Assembly (NCBI GenBank): GCA_046347985.1
Contig: JAXMFE010000012.1
Span: 35,558-99,557 of the forward strand
Length of the DNA stretch: 64,000 nucleotides
Source: Burkholderiales bacterium
GTDB lineage: Bacteria > Pseudomonadota > Gammaproteobacteria > Burkholderiales > Ga0077523
Direction: 5' to 3'
A program made the translations under genes and the position numbers. The notes under the pieces were generated by a model. The model made no database searches. It had not been told where the DNA came from and was given only the letters and a program-made list of their open reading frames with translations. This document shows, one piece after another, positions 14,909 to 42,020 of the stretch (position 1 is its first letter; each line of letters starts with the position of its first letter).

Positions 14909-14985
<77 letters not shown>

Positions 14986-34554: not shown

Positions 34555-34660
34555 GGGGCGGAAGGGATCATGAGGGATGCGCCGACGGACCACCTTGATA
34601 CAACGGCGTGACGCCGCGCTTCTTGATCTTGTCTTGCGAAACCGGGACAGTGACGGTCGA

Positions 34661-36685
34661 ATGATAGACATCGGAGCACTCTTTGCCGAGGATGGGCCTC
34701 TCGCCGCCGCCATCCCCGGGTTCCGTCATCGGGAGTCGCAGGTGGCGCTTGCGCGCGCCATCGCCGACGCGATCGATCGTCGCGGGGTGCTCATCGCCGA
34801 GGCGGGTACGGGCACGGGCAAGACGTTCGCGTACCTCGTGCCCGTGCTGGCCATGGGTGGCAAGGCGATCATCTCCACCGGGACGAAGACGCTTCAGGAT
34901 CAGCTCTTCGGGCGGGACTTGCCCACCGTGCGCAAGGCGCTGGGGGTGCCCGTCACGGTCGCGCTGCTGAAGGGACGGGCAAACTACGTCTGCCACTACC
35001 ACCTGGCGCGTGCGTCGACCGAGGGACGTTTCGTGGAACGCGCGGACGTCGGATACCTGAGGAGCATCGAGCGCTATGCGCGTACGAGCCAGAGCGGCGA
35101 TCGCGGCGGTCTGGCCGACGTCCCCGAGACGGCGAGTGTCTGGAGCGCGGTGACCTCGACGCGCGACAACTGCCTTGGCAGCGACTGTCCGGACTTCAAG
35201 GAATGTTTCGTGATGAAGGCCCGGAAGCAGGCCCTTGAAGCGGATGTGGTGGTCGTGAACCATCATCTCTTCTTCGCCGACGTCGTGCTGCGCGATGAAG
35301 GCGTCGGGGAACTGCTGCCTCATTGCAACACCGTCGTCCTCGATGAGGCCCACCAACTCCCCGACACGGCAAGCGTCTTCTTCGGGGACAGCGTTTCGAC
35401 CAGCCAGATCATCGAGCTCGCACGCGACAGCCGACTGGAGGGCGTGGCTGCCGCGAAGGATTTCGCTCCGCTGCCCGAGTCGTCGCGTCGTCTCGATCGA
35501 CTGGCGCGGGACCTGCGGCTCGCCTTTGAAGGGGAGGGGGCGAGACTGCCGGTTGCCGCGGCCCTGGCCAAGCCTGCGGTGGAGAAGGTCCTGGACGAAC
35601 TTCTCCACGCGGTGACGGACCTGTCCAGCCTGCTGGAATCCCAGGCCGAGCGCAGCGAAGGTCTGGAGCGTTGTCACGAGCGCAGCATCGAACTGGTGGC
35701 GCGACTGCACCGCTGGGCTCGCGAGCCCGATCCGGACGTCGTGCGGTGGGTCGAAGTCTTCGGCGGCTCCGTGCAACTGCATGCGACGCCGCTTTCGGTG
35801 GGTTCGATCTTCCGTCGGCAGGTGGAGGGCGGGGCGCGGGCCTGGATCCTGACGTCCGCCACCCTCTCCGTGAAAGGCGAGTTCTCGCACTACGCCGCCC
35901 AGATCGGCCTGGAGGATGCGCAGGCAGCGTCGTGGCCCAGCCCCTTCGACTACGAGCGTCAGGCGATTCTCTACGTGCCTGAGGACATGCCGAGCCCGAA
36001 CAGCCCGGGCTACACGAAGGCCGTGATCGATGCGGCGCTGCCGCTGATCGAGGCCAGCGGCGGTCGGACGTTCTGTCTGTTCACGAGCCTGCGGGCGATG
36101 CGGGAGGCGCATGGTCTGCTGGAGGCAGGACTGCAGCGGCGCGGCTTGCCGTTCCCGCTCCTGCTGCAAGGCGACGGCACCCGTACGGAACTGCTCGACC
36201 GTTTCCGTCGGGTCGGCAACGGCGTTCTCGTGGGAAGTCAGTCCTTCTGGGAAGGCGTGGACGTCCGCGGCCCGACCTTGTCGCTGGTGGTGATTGATCG
36301 GCTGCCCTTCACGCCGCCGGATGATCCGGTGCTCACGGCCCGGATCGAGCGCATCAACGCTGCCGGCGGCAATGCCTTCATGGAGTACCAGGTGCCGCAG
36401 GCGGCGATCCTCCTGAAGCAGGGCGCGGGACGCCTCATTCGCGACGAGAGCGATCGCGGCGTGCTGATGATCTGCGACCCTCGCCTCGTGGAGAAGCCGT
36501 ACGGGCGCCGCATCTGGCAAAGCCTGCCGCCCATGCGGCGGACCCGGATTGTGCGGGATGCCGTCGAGTTCCTGGCGGCACTCTCGACGGGCGATCGGCC
36601 GTTGCCCGATTCAGCGGAAGATCGCGATGCCGACGAACGTGGTGACCAGAATCCAGAGGCCCACGATCAGGCCGGCGCCGAATAG
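34661..36685 (+). CDS. ATP-dependent DNA helicase, DinG/YoaA (XPD-like, Fe-S) family
   Basis: Start re-picked to ATG 34661. Walker [15 protein letters not shown], Cys cluster [17 protein letters not shown] box [10 protein letters not shown]-terminal helicase motifs (QGAGRLIR). The last ~25 codons overlap the convergent ykvA-like gene. Confidence 0.9.
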
Positions 36686-36991
36686 GGACTTCGGTTTGGC
36701 GCGCTTCTCGGCGAACCACGTTTCGGCCGATTCGCGGGCTCGACTCGTCACGGCCTGCGGCAGGAGCTTCAGACAGAGTGCGATGGCCAGCGGGAGCAGG
36801 ATCACTTCGTCGAGGTAGCCGAGGATCGGGATGAAATCGGGGATCAGATCGACGGGGCTAAGCGCATAGGCCGCGATCAGCAGGGCGAGCAGCTTGGCGA
36901 TCACCGGTGTTTCGGGGTCGCGGGACGCGAACCACAACGTCATCCCGTTCCGGCGCAGGGCCTGGGCCCAGTCGATCAGGCGCCGCCACAT
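36611..36991 (-). CDS. YkvA/DUF1232-family membrane protein
   Basis: 126 aa with the family signature YALSPVDLIPDFIPILGYLDEV. Confidence 0.75.
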   Translation of the reverse strand: MWRRLIDWAQALRRNGMTLWFASRDPETPVIAKLLALLIAAYALSPVDLIPDFIPILGYLDEVILLPLAIALCLKLLPQAVTSRARESAETWFAEKRAKPKSLFGAGLIVGLWILVTTFVGIAIFR

Positions 36992-37001
36992 GGCGAAAGC
37001 G

Positions 37002-38342
37002 TCAGGCGAGGCGGATGGCGGACAGATCGTGCGTGTCGGCGCCCGTCACGCGGACACGAAGGAAGTCGCCGACCTTCGCGCCGATGGCGCCATCCACCCG
37101 GACGAGGCCGTCGATTTCCGGGGCGTCCGCCTGACTGCGGGCGGTGACTCGTCGTCCGTCGACCTCATCCACCAGCACGGTCAATTCCGTGCCGATGCGC
37201 CGGGCGAGTCGCTGCCCGGAAATCCGGGCCTGGACTTCCATGAATCGCTCAAGTCGCGCCTGCTTCAAGGGCTCGGGAACCGGATTCGGCAGTTCATTGG
37301 CGGCCGCGCCGTCGACGGGGGAATAGGCGAAGCACCCCACGCGGTCGAGTTGCGCCTCTTCGAGGAACTGCAGCATTTCCTCGAACTCCGCCTCCGTCTC
37401 GCCAGGGAAGCCGACGATGAAGGTCGATCGGACGGTGATGTCCGGGCAGGCGGCCCGCCACGCACGGATGCGTGCAAGATTGTTCTCTGCACTGGCGGGG
37501 CGCTTCATCAGTCTGAGGATCCGCGGATTCGCGTGCTGGAACGGCACGTCGAGATAGGGGAGCACCTTGCCGTCCGCCATGAGAGGGATCACTTCATCGA
37601 CGTGCGGATACGGGTAGACGTAGTGGAGCCGGATCCACGCACCGAACTGGGACAGGGCCTGCACCAGTTCGGTCATGCGCGTCCTGACAGGGCGTCCATG
37701 GAAAAAGCCCGTTCGATACTTGATATCGACGCCGTACGCGCTCGTGTCCTGCGAAATGATCAGGAGCTCCTTCACGCCCGCCCGGACGAGGTTCTCGGCT
37801 TCCTGCAGCACCTCTCCCACGGGGCGGCTGACCAGGTCACCCCGCATCGACGGGATGATGCAGAACGAGCAGCGGTGGTTGCAGCCTTCGGAGATCTTCA
37901 GATACGCGTAGTGCTTGGGCGTGAGCTTGATCCCGTGTGGCGGGACGAGATCCGTGTACGGATCGTGGGGTTTCGGCAGATGGCGATGGACCGCGTCCAT
38001 CACTTCCTGCGCCGCGTGAGGTCCCGTGACGGCGAGGACGGCCGGATGCGCCGTCTCGATGATTCCGCTGCGCGCGCCGAGACACCCCGTGACGATCACT
38101 TTCCCGTTCTCTGCGAGAGCTTCTCCGATGGCATCGAGGGATTCGGCGACCGCCGAGTCGATGAAGCCGCAGGTGTTCACGACAACCAGATCGGCACCGG
38201 CATAGTCCGGCGCGATGACGTATCCCTCGGCCCGGAGGCGGGTCAGGATCTGTTCGGAATCGACCAGGGCTTTTGGACAGCCCAGGGAAACGAAACCGAC
38301 ACGGGGCACCGCGTCGGGGCGCCGGGTTTGAGACTGGGTCAC
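37002..38342 (-). CDS. rimO: Ribosomal protein S12 methylthiotransferase RimO
   Basis: 446 aa. UPF0004 N-domain ([16 protein letters not shown]), radical-SAM CNHRCSFC, C-terminal TRAM domain. Confidence 0.95.
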
Positions 38343-38352
38343 GGACAGCGGG

Positions 38353-38946
38353 TCAGGGCTTCTTCGTGCCTTCGGAGTCCCGTTGGGCCGGGTTGTCGGC
38401 GCCCGGTGACGTCCCGAACGGGGTGAAGGGGAAAGCCGAGAACATGTTGCGCGCCTGACGCTGCAGCTGCTGCTGCATGTCGACGAAAGTGTTGGCGCTC
38501 TGCTCCAGATAGCTGCTCATGAGGCCCTGGATCGCTGGTCCTTGCATCTTGACGAACTGTGACCACGCTTCGGTGCCGACCACCGGGTTCTCGCCCAGTT
38601 TGCCGAACGACTGCTCCTGCAACTTGCGCTGGATCTCCATGAATGTCTGGATGTTCTTTTCCAGGTAGCTGCCCATCATGCCCTGCATTGCATTGCCGTA
38701 GAACCGGATGATCTGCGACAGCATGTCGCTGGAGAACATCGGCGCACCGGCGGTTTCCTCTTCCAGGATGATCTGGAGCAGGATGCTCCGCGTGAGATCT
38801 TCACCGGTCTTGGCATCGATGACCTTGAAGGCGACCTGCTCCAGGACCAGCACCTTGACGTCTGCGAGGGTGATGTAACTGCTCGTGGCCGTGTCGTACA
38901 GCCTGCGATTCGGGTACTTCTTGATCAGGCGAAGCTCTTCACTCAT
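38353..38946 (-). CDS. phaR: Polyhydroxyalkanoate synthesis repressor PhaR
   Basis: Start re-picked to ATG 38946 ([31 protein letters not shown], the PhaR N-terminal DNA-binding signature), preceded by AGAGG. 197 aa. Confidence 0.9.
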
Positions 38947-39082
38947 GGAAACCTCTTGTGACGTAGGGCCGGTCTCTATGCTGTGCTCCGCCGGAAGGGA
39001 GGTTCCTGGGCGGAGCGCATGGGTTTCTGACGGACCGTCGCGCGCAATGTAGCGGAAGAATGATGCGGCGCGCAAAAAAATC

Positions 39083-39112
39083 TTGACGTCACGTTCTCGA
39101 ACGCCGTAGTAT
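39083..39112 (+). promoter_or_regulatory. Near-consensus sigma70-type promoter, divergent from phaR
   Basis: TTGACG (39083-39088), 18-nt spacer, TAGTAT (39107-39112), A7 tract just upstream. The palindrome TGCGACGCA (39121-39129) sits at the predicted transcript start. Confidence 0.45.
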
Positions 39113-39118
39113 CCGTCT

Positions 39119-39551
39119 TGTGCGACGCAACAACATCCGCTTCATGCCACCCGATGGCAGATTGGCTAGTAACTGAAACGTCAGGATATTGCCGGATTGG
39201 TGCGGCGCGATCTCGCGTCCGAGAACAAGGATGTGGTCGACTGCACGTGGGTCAGGCGCGGCTGGTCGGTTGTGAGAAACGGGTTCGGCATGCGAGTGGC
39301 ATGTTAATCGCTTCTACTGCTGCAAAGGTAGCAAATGAAGCACTTCGGCGGACTTTGGTGGCAAACTACGTGTCACAAAATGTAACATGCGACAATGTCC
39401 GGCAATTCAGTGAATCGTGATCCGGGCCGCCGAAGCGGTCCGGAGAGGGTGGCGAGAAAACCGAGATACTCGCCGCTGCACTAAAGGCTCCTCCCCCTTT
39501 ATCGCAAGATAAAGGTTAGCCCCGATGACTACGTCACCGGGGCTTTTTTTT
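39119..39551 (+). ncRNA. Candidate ~430-nt non-coding or small-peptide transcript of unknown class in the phaB-phaR gap
   Basis: Bounded by the promoter above and the intrinsic terminator at 39518-39551. GC is about 53% by my hand count of 39121-39420, against about 68% in the flanks. Three stable hairpins occupy the last 130 nt. No ORF has native codon usage. Confidence 0.35.
39518..39551 (+). terminator. Rho-independent terminator (plus-strand orientation)
   Basis: AGCCCCG-a-TGAC-tac-GTCA-c-CGGGGCT stem followed by T8 (39544-39551). On the minus strand the post-hairpin tract is only UAACCUUUAUC, so plus orientation is favoured. It may also act on phaB read-through. Confidence 0.7.
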
Positions 39552-39562
39552 GTGCCCGGCGT

Positions 39563-40306
39563 TCAGGACATGTGCTGACCGCCATTGATCGAGATGTTCG
39601 CGCCGGTCAGGAACGCTGCCTCGTCGGATGCGAGGTAGATGATCAGGCCCGCGACTTCCTCCGGCTTGCCGAGGCGACCTACCGGAATCTGCGGCAGGAT
39701 CTTGGAATCCAGGATTTCCTTCGGGATGGCCGTCACCATCTTCGTGCCGATGTAGCCGGGCGAGATGGTATTGACCGTGACGCCCTTCTTCGCCACCTCG
39801 AGCGCCAGCGCCTTGGTGAATCCGTGCATGCCGGCCTTTGCCGCCGAGTAGTTGGTCTGGCCGAACGCGCCCTTCTGACCGTTGACCGACGAGATGTTGA
39901 CCACGCGGCCCCAGCCTCGGTCCACCATCCCGTCCATCACCTGCTTGGTCATGTTGAAGACGCTATCGAGATTGGTGCGGATGACCGCATCCCAATCACC
40001 CTTCGTCATCTTCTTGAAGGTCATGTCCCGTGTGATGCCGGCGTTGTTCACCAGCACGTCGACCGAACCGACCTCGCTTTCGACGCGCTTGATGGCGGCA
40101 GCACAGGAGTCGAAGTCGGTCACATCACATGCTACGGCATGAAAGTCGTATCCGCGTCCTTTCATCGTGGCAATCCACTCGGCGGCCGTGGTGTTCGACG
40201 GGGAATGCGTCACAACCACGGTATATCCCTGGTCCGCCATCCCGGTGCTGATGGATTCGCCGAGACCTCCCATGCCGCCGGTCACGAGCACGATGCGCTT
40301 GGACAT
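39563..40306 (-). CDS. phaB: Acetoacetyl-CoA reductase (SDR family)
   Basis: 247 aa. VLVTGGMGGLGES cofactor motif, catalytic YSAAKAG, and adjacency to phaC. Confidence 0.9.
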   Translation of the reverse strand: MSKRIVLVTGGMGGLGESISTGMADQGYTVVVTHSPSNTTAAEWIATMKGRGYDFHAVACDVTDFDSCAAAIKRVESEVGSVDVLVNNAGITRDMTFKKMTKGDWDAVIRTNLDSVFNMTKQVMDGMVDRGWGRVVNISSVNGQKGAFGQTNYSAAKAGMHGFTKALALEVAKKGVTVNTISPGYIGTKMVTAIPKEILDSKILPQIPVGRLGKPEEVAGLIIYLASDEAAFLTGANISINGGQHMS

Positions 40307-40331
40307 TCTCTGTTCTCCTGTTTCGATGATC

Positions 40332-42020
40332 TCAAGCCTGCGATGTCTGCGGGCCGGATGCGCCGCGCCCCATCACGTAGGATCCGGGGGCAGCCTCCAG
40401 TTCGGATTCACGCAGTCGCGTACGGCGCGCTCGGCGCCAGGCGCCACTGTGGATGCCAAGCCAGTGGCTCCAATCATGCCACCAGCTTCCCGCGTGTGGT
40501 TGCGCCATGGCCAACCATTCCTGCGCGGTCGACCCGGGAAGGCTGTTTGTCCAGTACCCGCGGCGCACCGGTTCGGGCGGATTCACGATGCCGGCGACAT
40601 GACCGCTTTGCGCAAGGACGAATCGTGCCGGACCGCCGAGCCGGCGGGCGCTGTCGAACGCCGAAGTCCAGGGGACGATGTGATCGGCTCGGGTGGCGAG
40701 GGCATAGATCGGCATCTGGAGCAATGCCAGGTCAATCGGGTGTCCGCATAGTCGAATCGCCCCGGGCAGAATGAGGCGGTTCTCCAGATACATCTGCCGG
40801 ATGTAGAAGGCGAACAGCGGGCCGGGCACGCCGGTGCCGTCGCTGTTCCAGTGCAGGAAGTCGTGGCCGGGCGTCTCCTCGCCCAGCAGATAGTTGTGCT
40901 GTACGAAGTGCCACACGAGTTCACGCGCGCGCAGGCTTGAAAATGCCGCAGCAAGGCGGCTGCCGTCCATGACGCCGCCGGTTGCGAATTCGGACTCGAA
41001 CGCGCCGACCGAGTCCGCGTCGAGGTAGACGGACATGTCGCCCGCGTCGGCAAAGTCCAGCAGGGTCGCGAGCAAGGTGAGCGACGCGGCGCGATGGTGG
41101 CCACGGGCTTGATCGACGGCCAGAGCAGTGGTGGCGAGGGTTCCGCCGACGCAGTAGCCCAAGACGTTCGCTTGCGGCATCCGAGTGACGCGCGTGACCT
41201 CGTCGAGGGCCTCGAGCACGCCGCGTTCGATGTAGTGCTCCCAGGTGAATGCCGACGAAGGATCGGGATCCACCCAGGACAGCAGGAACACGTCGAATCC
41301 TTGCGCCGTCGCGTATCGCACGAAGGATGATGCGGGCCTAAGGTCGAGGATGTAGTACTTGTTGATGAAGGGAGGTACCACGAGCAACGGGACGCTTCGA
41401 ACCTGCGGTCCCGCTGCGCGGTAGTGGATCAGTTGCGCCACGGGCGATGCGTGGACGACACTGCCGGGCGTGGCGGCCAGGTCGACGCCGATCGTGAAAC
41501 CGTCACCCGCGCTCGTCGTGATGCTGCGTTTGGCGATGTCTCGCGAGAGATGGTTCAGTCCCCGGGCAATCGATTCCCCGTGCGTTTCGATGGCGCGGAG
41601 CAGGGCTCGCGGGTTGGTCGCGAGCGCGTTGTCCGGGTCGATGGCGTCCAGTGCCTGCCTGAGCGCGACGCGGGTTCGGCGCTGCTCCATCGGCGGCAGG
41701 TCGAGCAGCATCGCAAAGTCCTGGCCCCATGCCTCCCACAGGCGATGCTGGTCGCGGAGATAGCGGAACCACGGATGCGCACCGGGGTCGCGTGCATCCG
41801 CTGCAGGCGGAGGGGAACGGCTCACCGATTGCCAAAGCGTCCACTGGCGGTCGTACAAAGCCTGCAAGGCCGAGCGGGTTTCTTCGGGGCGATCCTGGAG
41901 GGCGCGAACGAAGGCTGCCGCGATGGCGTCCGGACGGAGCCGGGCGGAAGATCCGAACGCAGCCCACAGGGACTCGGCGTGGAGGTCGCCCGCCAGAGGG
42001 TTGAATGCGGATACTGTCAC
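40332..42020 (-). CDS. phaC: Class I poly(R)-hydroxyalkanoate synthase
   Basis: 562 aa. Lipase-box-like GYCVGG, conserved YILDL and WNSDGT regions, and a size typical of class I PhaC. Confidence 0.92.
   Translation of the reverse strand: MTVSAFNPLAGDLHAESLWAAFGSSARLRPDAIAAAFVRALQDRPEETRSALQALYDRQWTLWQSVSRSPPPAADARDPGAHPWFRYLRDQHRLWEAWGQDFAMLLDLPPMEQRRTRVALRQALDAIDPDNALATNPRALLRAIETHGESIARGLNHLSRDIAKRSITTSAGDGFTIGVDLAATPGSVVHASPVAQLIHYRAAGPQVRSVPLLVVPPFINKYYILDLRPASSFVRYATAQGFDVFLLSWVDPDPSSAFTWEHYIERGVLEALDEVTRVTRMPQANVLGYCVGGTLATTALAVDQARGHHRAASLTLLATLLDFADAGDMSVYLDADSVGAFESEFATGGVMDGSRLAAAFSSLRARELVWHFVQHNYLLGEETPGHDFLHWNSDGTGVPGPLFAFYIRQMYLENRLILPGAIRLCGHPIDLALLQMPIYALATRADHIVPWTSAFDSARRLGGPARFVLAQSGHVAGIVNPPEPVRRGYWTNSLPGSTAQEWLAMAQPHAGSWWHDWSHWLGIHSGAWRRARRTRLRESELEAAPGSYVMGRGASGPQTSQA

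Follow-up and report, generated by a model that had tools for sequence, protein, structure and literature searches.

The literature that we found contains one characterized small RNA (sRNA) under the control of PhaR, the polyhydroxybutyrate (PHB)-responsive repressor, namely the alphaproteobacterial MmgR. In Sinorhizobium meliloti, PhaR represses the promoter of this sRNA, where a PhaR (AniA) box is found, and the RNA, which carries an anti-Shine-Dalgarno (anti-SD) 10-mer, limits PHB accumulation as well as the levels of the phasin proteins PhaP1 and PhaP2 (PMC8401924, PMC12542648, PMC12559287). The core of the PhaR palindrome defined in this species, YGCRNYGCR, flanks the promoters of phaP1, phaP2 and mmgR (PMC12542648). 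In Ralstonia eutropha, PhaR represses phaP1, phaP3 and its own gene, and nascent granules titrate PhaR (PMC11332829). Here we analyzed a 64,000-nt stretch of DNA from a Burkholderiales bacterium (hereafter, the window), in which an initial annotation had proposed an unannotated plus-strand transcription unit of about 430 nt in the gap between phaB and phaR. Our results favor, with moderate confidence, the reading that this unit is the relic of a phasin gene (phaP) that lay between phaR and phaB, and that its putatively PhaR-gated promoter and 69-nt 3' end (the module) were kept by selection, as an anti-SD sRNA.

The promoter of the unit resembles the PhaR-repressed phaP promoters of R. eutropha (phaP1/phaP3) and S. 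meliloti (phaP1/phaP2), which are sigma-70 promoters with PhaR sites beside the -35 and over the -10 or the start, divergent from or close to phaR (PMC11332829, PMC12542648). It differs from them in that it no longer drives a phasin, and its control by PhaR is a prediction. The proposed logic, in which PHB status acts through PhaR on an anti-SD sRNA, would be shared with MmgR, whereas MmgR is alphaproteobacterial and is a stand-alone gene and the window module is the 3' end of phaP. In Betaproteobacteria, the double-hairpin RNAs of Burkholderia have CU-rich unpaired regions that are predicted to cover ribosome-binding sites, and their overexpression slows growth (PMC5688073). Our literature search found no description of an sRNA derived from a phasin 3' untranslated region (3' UTR).

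The slot of a phasin gene

In the window, phaB and phaR are separated by 616 nt (start codon of phaR at 38946 and stop codon of phaB at 39563, with both genes on the minus strand), so that the plus-strand unit is convergent with phaB and divergent from phaR; both the size of the gap and the orientation of the unit agree with what the initial annotation had reported. The features assigned to the unit and its upstream region are listed here, with positions in the window.

39064-39072, no strand: PhaR-type box 1, TGCGGCGCG, which ends 10 nt before the -35
39074-39080, plus strand: A7 tract, UP-element-like by sequence reading; an A-rich run is conserved in the alignments (A2 and window clade)
39083-39112, plus strand: sigma-70-type promoter TTGACG-18-TAGTAT, from promoter scan and alignment, orthologous to the phaP promoter of relatives
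39119-39551, plus strand: predicted primary transcript of ~430 nt, with the start placed from the -10 and the end at U8
39121-39129, no strand: PhaR-type box 2, TGCGACGCA, which covers the predicted transcription start and begins 8 nt downstream of the -10
39135-39482, plus strand: non-conserved body in the slot of the lost phasin coding sequence (CDS), holding the spurious open reading frame (ORF) 39118-39420 and lineage-specific hairpins at 39421-39444 and 39451-39474
39483-39551, plus strand: conserved 3' module of 69 nt, double-hairpin and sRNA-like, from covariance model R1 and alignments A1 and A3
39488-39497, plus strand: anti-SD 10-mer CUCCUCCCCC, single-stranded over its first 8 nt, with its last 2 nt forming the start of hairpin 1
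39496-39515, plus strand: hairpin 1, CCUUUAUC-GCAA-GAUAAAGG, from folds
39518-39551, plus strand: intrinsic terminator, stem 39518-39543 and U8 39544-39551, from fold and covariation

With the window PhaR as query, a scan that covered one genome per species returned 80 loci, and the comparison as a whole took in about 100 related loci. All 80 loci have phaB on the strand of phaR and upstream of it; phaC was present wherever the contig extended far enough. The phaB-phaR gap was ~100-250 nt in most of these loci; the closest relatives (PhaR ~72-84% identical), mostly metagenome-assembled genomes of Burkholderiales or Rhodocyclaceae, had gaps of ~460-1125 nt. Eight close-relative loci contained a long ORF on the strand that matches the window plus strand, ~165-210 aa long in seven of them (the L035 call was unreliable), and each of the four slot ORFs scanned matched Pfam Phasin_2 (PF09361), with E values of 1e-11 to 1e-23. 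An ORF of this length was seen on that strand in relatives whose phaB-phaR gap measures ~800-1100 nt. This phasin gene points away from phaR and toward phaB, and the window unit thus matches a phasin gene in both position and orientation. Furthermore, blastn of the window gap against all loci revealed two conserved islands, at ~39038-39134 and ~39481-39557. The flanks, strand, promoter and 3' end of the unit are thus those of intact phaP loci, which identifies it by synteny as the remnant of a phasin gene. The initial annotation had considered that the region might be a decayed protein gene, and this applies in part: the unit is such a remnant, but its putatively regulated promoter and sRNA-like 3' module survive repeatedly.

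No phasin remnant was found in the window body by tblastn, by a protein hidden Markov model (HMM) run on all frames or by an nhmmer profile of the nearest phaP genes; in the same searches, the pseudogene L101 scored clearly and L003 and L009 scored marginally. A phasin HMM, tblastn and nhmmer likewise found no phasin gene elsewhere in the window.

To these loci we added a metagenome scan with a module-derived pattern, which returned 120 stretches; R1, run on the first 100, separated true modules (63-99 bits) from chance matches to the pattern (28 bits or less, or no hit). All true modules with enough flanking DNA belonged to pha clusters, almost all of which were arranged as phaR, (phaP), module, phaB, phaC. 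The loci fell into two states. In ~46 loci, the module lay ~800 nt from the phaR start and was preceded by an intact phasin ORF of ~180 aa, which ended 4-13 nt from the module in most of these loci and 3-31 nt from it across all of them; in these phaP-bearing relatives, the module is therefore located downstream of a parent ORF with which it shares a terminator, as a 3' UTR-derived sRNA would be. In ~27 loci with no phasin HMM match, the module lay 342-791 nt from the phaR start, mostly less than 710 nt (542 nt in the window). Frameshifted or partial phasin intermediates were found in L003, L005, L009 and L101. In a neighbor-joining tree of PhaR, the ORF-less state was found in at least five clades that sit among phaP-bearing ones, although this tree is rough and the exact number of ORF losses is uncertain.

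The shortest ORF-less unit, that of L193 (module ~342 nt from the phaR start), has phaC directly after the module and no detected phaB. L106, L120 and L180 each carry two inverted modules and a second low-identity pha cluster on one contig, which looks like chimeric or error-rich assembly rather than biology. The pattern scan also matched an intergenic sequence, TTGCAAACTTCCCCCTCCTCCCCCTTTACAGCC..., that is conserved in many human-gut contigs (L090, L092, L096, L099 and ~20 others); this sequence has no relation to the pha locus and does not pass R1.

The region between the two islands behaved differently. The body (39135-39482) could not be aligned even with the closest relatives, the window clade (PhaR 80-85% identical), from which it also differs in length, and neither of its hairpins (39421-39444 and 39451-39474) had a counterpart in the window-clade alignment. 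The low GC content noted in the initial annotation (~53% at 39121-39420) was borne out by a value of 0.537, and the contrast drawn with flanks of 68% holds for the window as a whole (mean 0.672) but not for the adjacent phaR and phaB genes (0.59-0.61). We rejected the reading of ORF 39118-39420 as a genuine gene: its start codon is TTG, its GC content at third codon positions (GC3) is 0.45 compared with 0.78-0.84 in phaR, phaB and phaC, and it has no Pfam match, is not conserved and is uncalled in independent assemblies. The earlier statement that no credible ORF is present stands.

The initial annotation had read the unit as a candidate structured sRNA or as a leader with a very small peptide. 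A minimum-free-energy fold contained each of the four hairpins that it had listed, at 39421-39444 (10 bp, CGAA loop), 39451-39474, 39496-39515 (8 bp, GCAA loop) and 39518-39543, followed by T8. A single structured regulatory RNA spanning all 430 nt, or such a leader, would fit the fold of the entire unit (z = -5.0 relative to shuffled sequences), the GC trough and the several strong hairpins. However, the folding signal stems largely from the 3' part: the last 69 nt gave z = -4.6 and the body alone (39119-39415) only z = -2.3, marginally better than shuffles. Even relatives with 83-85% PhaR identity show no conservation of the body or of its two hairpins, and no Rfam family was found for the unit at threshold. 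Lineages also differ greatly in unit length; with the predicted start ~190-580 nt upstream of the module in the other ORF-less ones, transcripts would measure roughly 265-660 nt. A small leader peptide was also tried and dropped, since the small ORFs have weak, unconvincing SD sequences and none is conserved. We therefore regard a 430-nt structured RNA or leader as very improbable; what persists of the sRNA candidate is its last 69 nt and not the unit as a whole.

Promoter, 3' module and selection

The initial annotation had pointed to TTGACG-18 nt-TAGTAT, preceded by an A7 tract, as promoter-like, and a scan of 38300-40400 returned it as the only sigma-70-like site (0.5 expected). The consensus-like -35, the 17-18-nt spacer and the A tract are strong-promoter traits, and PhaR-type boxes lie on either side. 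The -35 TTGAC and the -10 TAnnAT (TA..AT) were invariant in 16 loci (alignment A2), which also shared an invariant TGC..GC in box 1 and invariant T, TGC, GC and A positions in box 2. Box 1 lies ~10 nt before the -35 in many loci, TGCRNYGCA follows the -10 by 6-9 nt in 58 loci, and both boxes match the PhaR core YGCRNYGCR. A strict pattern that joins the promoter to the downstream box, TTGACN-17/18-TAnnnT-(6-9 nt)-TGCRNYGCA, was present in 34 of 35 phaP-bearing loci and in 20 of 27 ORF-less loci, this last retention being counted among loci selected for the module only; most loci that fail the pattern still have TTGAC in place.

Box 1 may also overlap the phaR promoter on the opposite strand. 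A possible phaR promoter, TTGCGC-18-TACATT (39040-39076, minus strand), was read by eye and was unflagged by the scan; its overlap with box 1 would be consistent with a shared operator through which PhaR regulates its own gene. The PhaR core is matched a third time within the non-conserved body (TGCGGCGCG, 39201-39209); this match is not conserved in relatives and is probably due to chance.

At the other end of the unit, R1 scored the window module at 69.8 bits (E 1e-15), as a single copy; with filters off, it found no further copies in the 64-kb window. Across loci, the module is 60-80 nt long and has the general form (A/C)AGG-CUCCUCCCCC-UUUA...UAAAGG-UU(C)-terminator-U7-9 (alignments A1 and A3). 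Six variants that were folded share one structure (z = -4.6 to -7.8), which consists of ~13 unpaired nt ending in CUCCUCCC, hairpin 1, a 2-3-nt linker and the terminator, and the 10-mer was unpaired in all six. In hairpin 1, the basal 5 bp are invariant and the apex differs by clade yet stays paired: the window clade has an 8-bp stem closed by a GNRA loop, and other clades have longer stems capped by UUCG or UUUU. The terminator stem showed compensatory changes in 7 of 10 pairs, with 98% of cells paired (52 sequences), and none of 500 shuffles reached the observed score. These results support the strong plus-strand intrinsic terminator with T8 that the initial annotation had described, and supply the covariation that it had suggested looking for in the orthologous gaps of relatives. 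A simple terminator scan did not flag 39518-39551, possibly because of one internal mismatch in the stem.

In the phaP-bearing loci L013 (3088-3190) and L016 (468-570), CUCCUCCUCC replaces CUCCUCCCCC and a second CU-rich run, CCCCCUCC, lies in the apical loop of hairpin 1, so that both loci have two anti-SD sites, as described for ncS03. A weaker variant of the module, GGAUCUCCUCCUCUU...AGAGGUU plus a terminator (31.8 bits), was found at L020:1128-1213 on the minus strand of that locus; the gap there measures 293 nt, the variant is only 188 nt away from the start of phaR, and the region upstream of it is different. This variant may be a minimal stand-alone version.

The fair test of selection on these elements is the set of loci found through PhaR alone (16 sequences, 8 of them ORF-less). 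In this set, the 4-fold degenerate sites of phaB showed 48% pairwise identity and only 3 of 70 were invariant. Over the same 16 sequences, TTGAC, TA..AT and both TGC..GC boxes of the promoter were invariant in every case, as were UCCUCC.CCUUUA and AAGG.U of the module, in which 12 of 14 consecutive positions did not vary. The complete 10-mer CUCCUCCCCC was invariant in 14 of 16, the other two carrying CUCCUCCUCC. The module was kept in every ORF-less locus of the set, with CUCCUCCCCCUUUA exact in 8 of 8, and the R1 scores of ORF-less loci (70-99 bits) were no lower than those of phaP-bearing loci. The unit is bounded, as the initial annotation had it, by a promoter and an intrinsic terminator, and both ends are under strong purifying selection. 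We hold these statements on homology and conservation with high confidence.

The retention of the module could reflect its past rather than its present. In Staphylococcus aureus, the 3' UTR of icaR pairs with the SD of its own mRNA and tunes translation or stability. By analogy, the module may have been a cis-acting 3' UTR element of phaP mRNA, for example one that pairs with its own SD, and may persist in the window as an undecayed leftover in a functionless transcript. Several findings agree with this: the module follows the phaP stop codon by 4-13 nt in most intact loci, the phaP ribosome-binding sites are G-rich SDs able to pair with it, the slot is clearly a decayed gene, and everything has been lost in some lineages. 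Such a leftover would, however, have had to withstand the loss of the ORF in at least five clades, where the body became unalignable and shrank by up to ~460 nt. Even so, the 14-nt core remained exact in all ORF-less loci of the unbiased set, the promoter, putative operators and hairpin remained intact, and ORF-less R1 scores did not fall, whereas just 4% of the neutral sites of the neighboring phaB are invariant. Because of this repeated retention amid heavy divergence of the surroundings, an inert relic is disfavored, and we consider it unlikely.

Alternatively, the 3' island might serve only as a terminator or insulator that stops convergent phaCB and plus-strand transcription, with the C/U run and hairpin 1 as accessories. 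In favor of this, 20 nt separate the hairpin at 39518-39543 from the stop codon of phaB, its flanking tracts (A8 on the strand of phaB, U8 on the plus strand) have the geometry of a bidirectional terminator, and the stem covaries as terminators do. But the stems vary freely, whereas the 10-mer and the base of hairpin 1, which termination does not need, are invariant; the retention of the PhaR-boxed promoter in ORF-less loci would be left unexplained; and L021, L032 and L035, which have phaP in the slot, terminate without any such module. We judge this alternative to be improbable, more so than an inert relic.

Other observations weigh against a regulated, selected sRNA and set limits on how it can be argued. 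Loci L081-L200 were selected with the module-derived pattern, so that invariance among them exists by construction and loci that lost the module go unseen. Complete loss does occur, as in short-gap relatives (e.g., L014 and L017-L019) in which both phaP and the module are missing. Ending the convergent phaCB transcript could be reason enough for the terminator part to be kept. YGCRNYGCR by itself is not enriched in this GC-rich window (70 matches compared with 111 expected), and therefore the operator assignment rests on positional invariance and not on the match; this putative assignment depends on that invariance together with an alphaproteobacterial consensus. Sites resembling GGGGGAGGAG, as expected of targets, were not enriched in the window either (7 compared with 8.4 expected), and a search by complementarity within the 64 kb identified no target, a result that is uninformative. 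Finally, the phaP ribosome-binding sites of relatives are ordinary SDs, so their pairing with the module is generic.

The module was absent within 4 kb of phaR in Burkholderia, Paraburkholderia, Pandoraea, Cupriavidus and Thauera, and it was absent from the distant loci L021, L032 and L035, in which phaP occupies the slot. Its absence from more distant phaP loci indicates that the module is an innovation of one clade.

Genomic surroundings and related RNA families

Pfam confirmed the identity of the PhaR, PhaB and PhaC proteins of the window, which are encoded by the following genes.

38353-38946, minus strand: phaR, PHB-responsive repressor (Pfam PHB_acc_N and PHB_acc, E 1e-30 to 1e-34), the divergent neighbor
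39563-40306, minus strand: phaB, acetoacetyl-CoA reductase (Pfam adh_short, E 9e-62), the convergent neighbor
40332-42020, minus strand: phaC (Pfam)

The window phaB is 82-91% identical to phaB of related loci. The phaC-phaB-gap-phaR region was found at 99.8-100% identity in four independent metagenome assemblies (L201-L204: ENA ERZ27282990, ERZ27286469, ERZ27282906; SRR6837559), and for this reason the locus is genuine and no assembly artifact. Gene callers made no calls in the gap in the three independent assemblies that span it. The pha cluster of the window contains phaC and phaB and no phaA. Downstream of phaR are genes for a RimO/MiaB-like radical-SAM enzyme (37002-38342, minus strand), a DUF1232 protein (36611-36991, minus strand) and a DinG-like helicase (34577-36685, plus strand). 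The sole Rfam match at gathering score in the whole window was a tRNA gene (14909-14982, plus strand).

At gathering score, Rfam returned no family for the unit, nor for 17 related loci, in line with the impression in the initial annotation that it is not tmRNA, RNase P RNA or 6S RNA. The sub-threshold resemblances were all to CU-rich sRNA families. For anti-hemB/ncS04 (RF02837; gathering score 49.5), the window scored 23.4 bits and relatives 28.1 and 29.5 bits; for the double-hairpin or toxic sRNA family RF02278 (gathering score 50), the scores were 19.9 bits in the window, 18.7 in L013 and 23.8 in L005; ar14 (gathering score 58.8) gave 21.8 bits in L013; and MmgR/alpha-r8 (RF00519; gathering score 41) gave 23.4 bits in L005 and 11.1 in L013, with no hit in the window at E<=10. 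By this covariance-model test, the module is outside all these families.

The RF02278 family (ncS03, ncS05, ncS27 and ncS62 of Burkholderia cenocepacia; PMC5688073) is like the module in its size of ~60-90 nt, its two hairpins, the second of which is a terminator, and its occurrence in Betaproteobacteria. Six folds and alignment A3 showed the same layout in the module, i.e., two hairpins plus a CU-rich unpaired anti-ribosome-binding-site stretch. They probably differ in copy number: RF02278 comprises 3-5 dispersed stand-alone genes per genome (PMC5688073), whereas the module, found by R1 once in the 64-kb window and once per locus stretch elsewhere, is tied to one locus, the 3' end of phaP. 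The CU run precedes hairpin 1 in the window clade but lies in a hairpin loop in RF02278, and the module has a phasin promoter. Anti-hemB/ncS04 of Burkholderia, the best sub-threshold match, resembles the module in having a 5' part with CUCCUCCC, then a hairpin and a terminator, but it occurs in another genomic context, and the window lacks the first hairpin of its model. Enterobacterial 3' UTR-derived sRNAs such as CpxQ, DapZ and SroC share the terminator of their parent mRNA and start just after its stop codon. Here, by contrast, repeated losses have removed the parent CDS, while the promoter and the sRNA part remain.

Proposed function

A promoter flanked by PhaR-type boxes, an accessible 10-mer that reads as an extended anti-SD and is the sole conserved RNA feature of the transcript, a stabilizing hairpin and a U-tailed terminator together give the unit the anatomy of an sRNA that would target ribosome-binding sites and be made when PHB titrates PhaR. 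We consider it somewhat probable, from these sequence features, that the module is a functional PhaR-gated sRNA that acts in trans. In our model, a promoter repressed by PhaR would have driven the ancestral phaP in the direction leading away from phaR. On formation of PHB granules, PhaR would leave the DNA, the promoter would fire and a non-coding RNA of ~430 nt would be made. Its 3' part, as is or after processing, would be the anti-SD sRNA, with a single-stranded CUCCUCCCCC, a protecting hairpin and a terminator whose U tail could bind Hfq. Pairing of this sRNA with the ribosome-binding sites of target mRNAs would lower their translation and thereby couple PHB status to protein synthesis. 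In phaP-bearing relatives, the module may be a 3' UTR-derived sRNA that is co-expressed with the phasin, while in window-like lineages the same promoter would make the non-coding RNA only. Transcription, control by PhaR, processing, Hfq dependence, action in trans and the targets are all elements that we infer.

More tentatively, the module may define an undescribed family of betaproteobacterial riboregulators that originated in a phasin 3' UTR under a PhaR-controlled phasin promoter and outlived its parent CDS in several lineages. This family would be a Burkholderiales counterpart of MmgR that evolved independently.

Altogether, the feature seen in the initial annotation is real, conserved and unannotated, and its nature is more specific than was proposed: it is a phasin-gene relic with a persisting, putatively regulated promoter and a 3' anti-SD double-hairpin module. 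The 69-nt element was missed by annotation pipelines, and the long "empty" spacer between phaB and phaR is not simply a spacer. In a 2021 review, the riboregulation of PHB metabolism in Cupriavidus necator, the model betaproteobacterium, was called "undeciphered" (PMC8401924). If our reading is true, the intact, frameshifted and ORF-less stages found among relatives would form a natural series from an mRNA gene to an sRNA gene, and a PhaR-gated anti-SD RNA in the pha cluster of an uncultured Burkholderiales clade would represent a second, independent coupling of granule status to translation.

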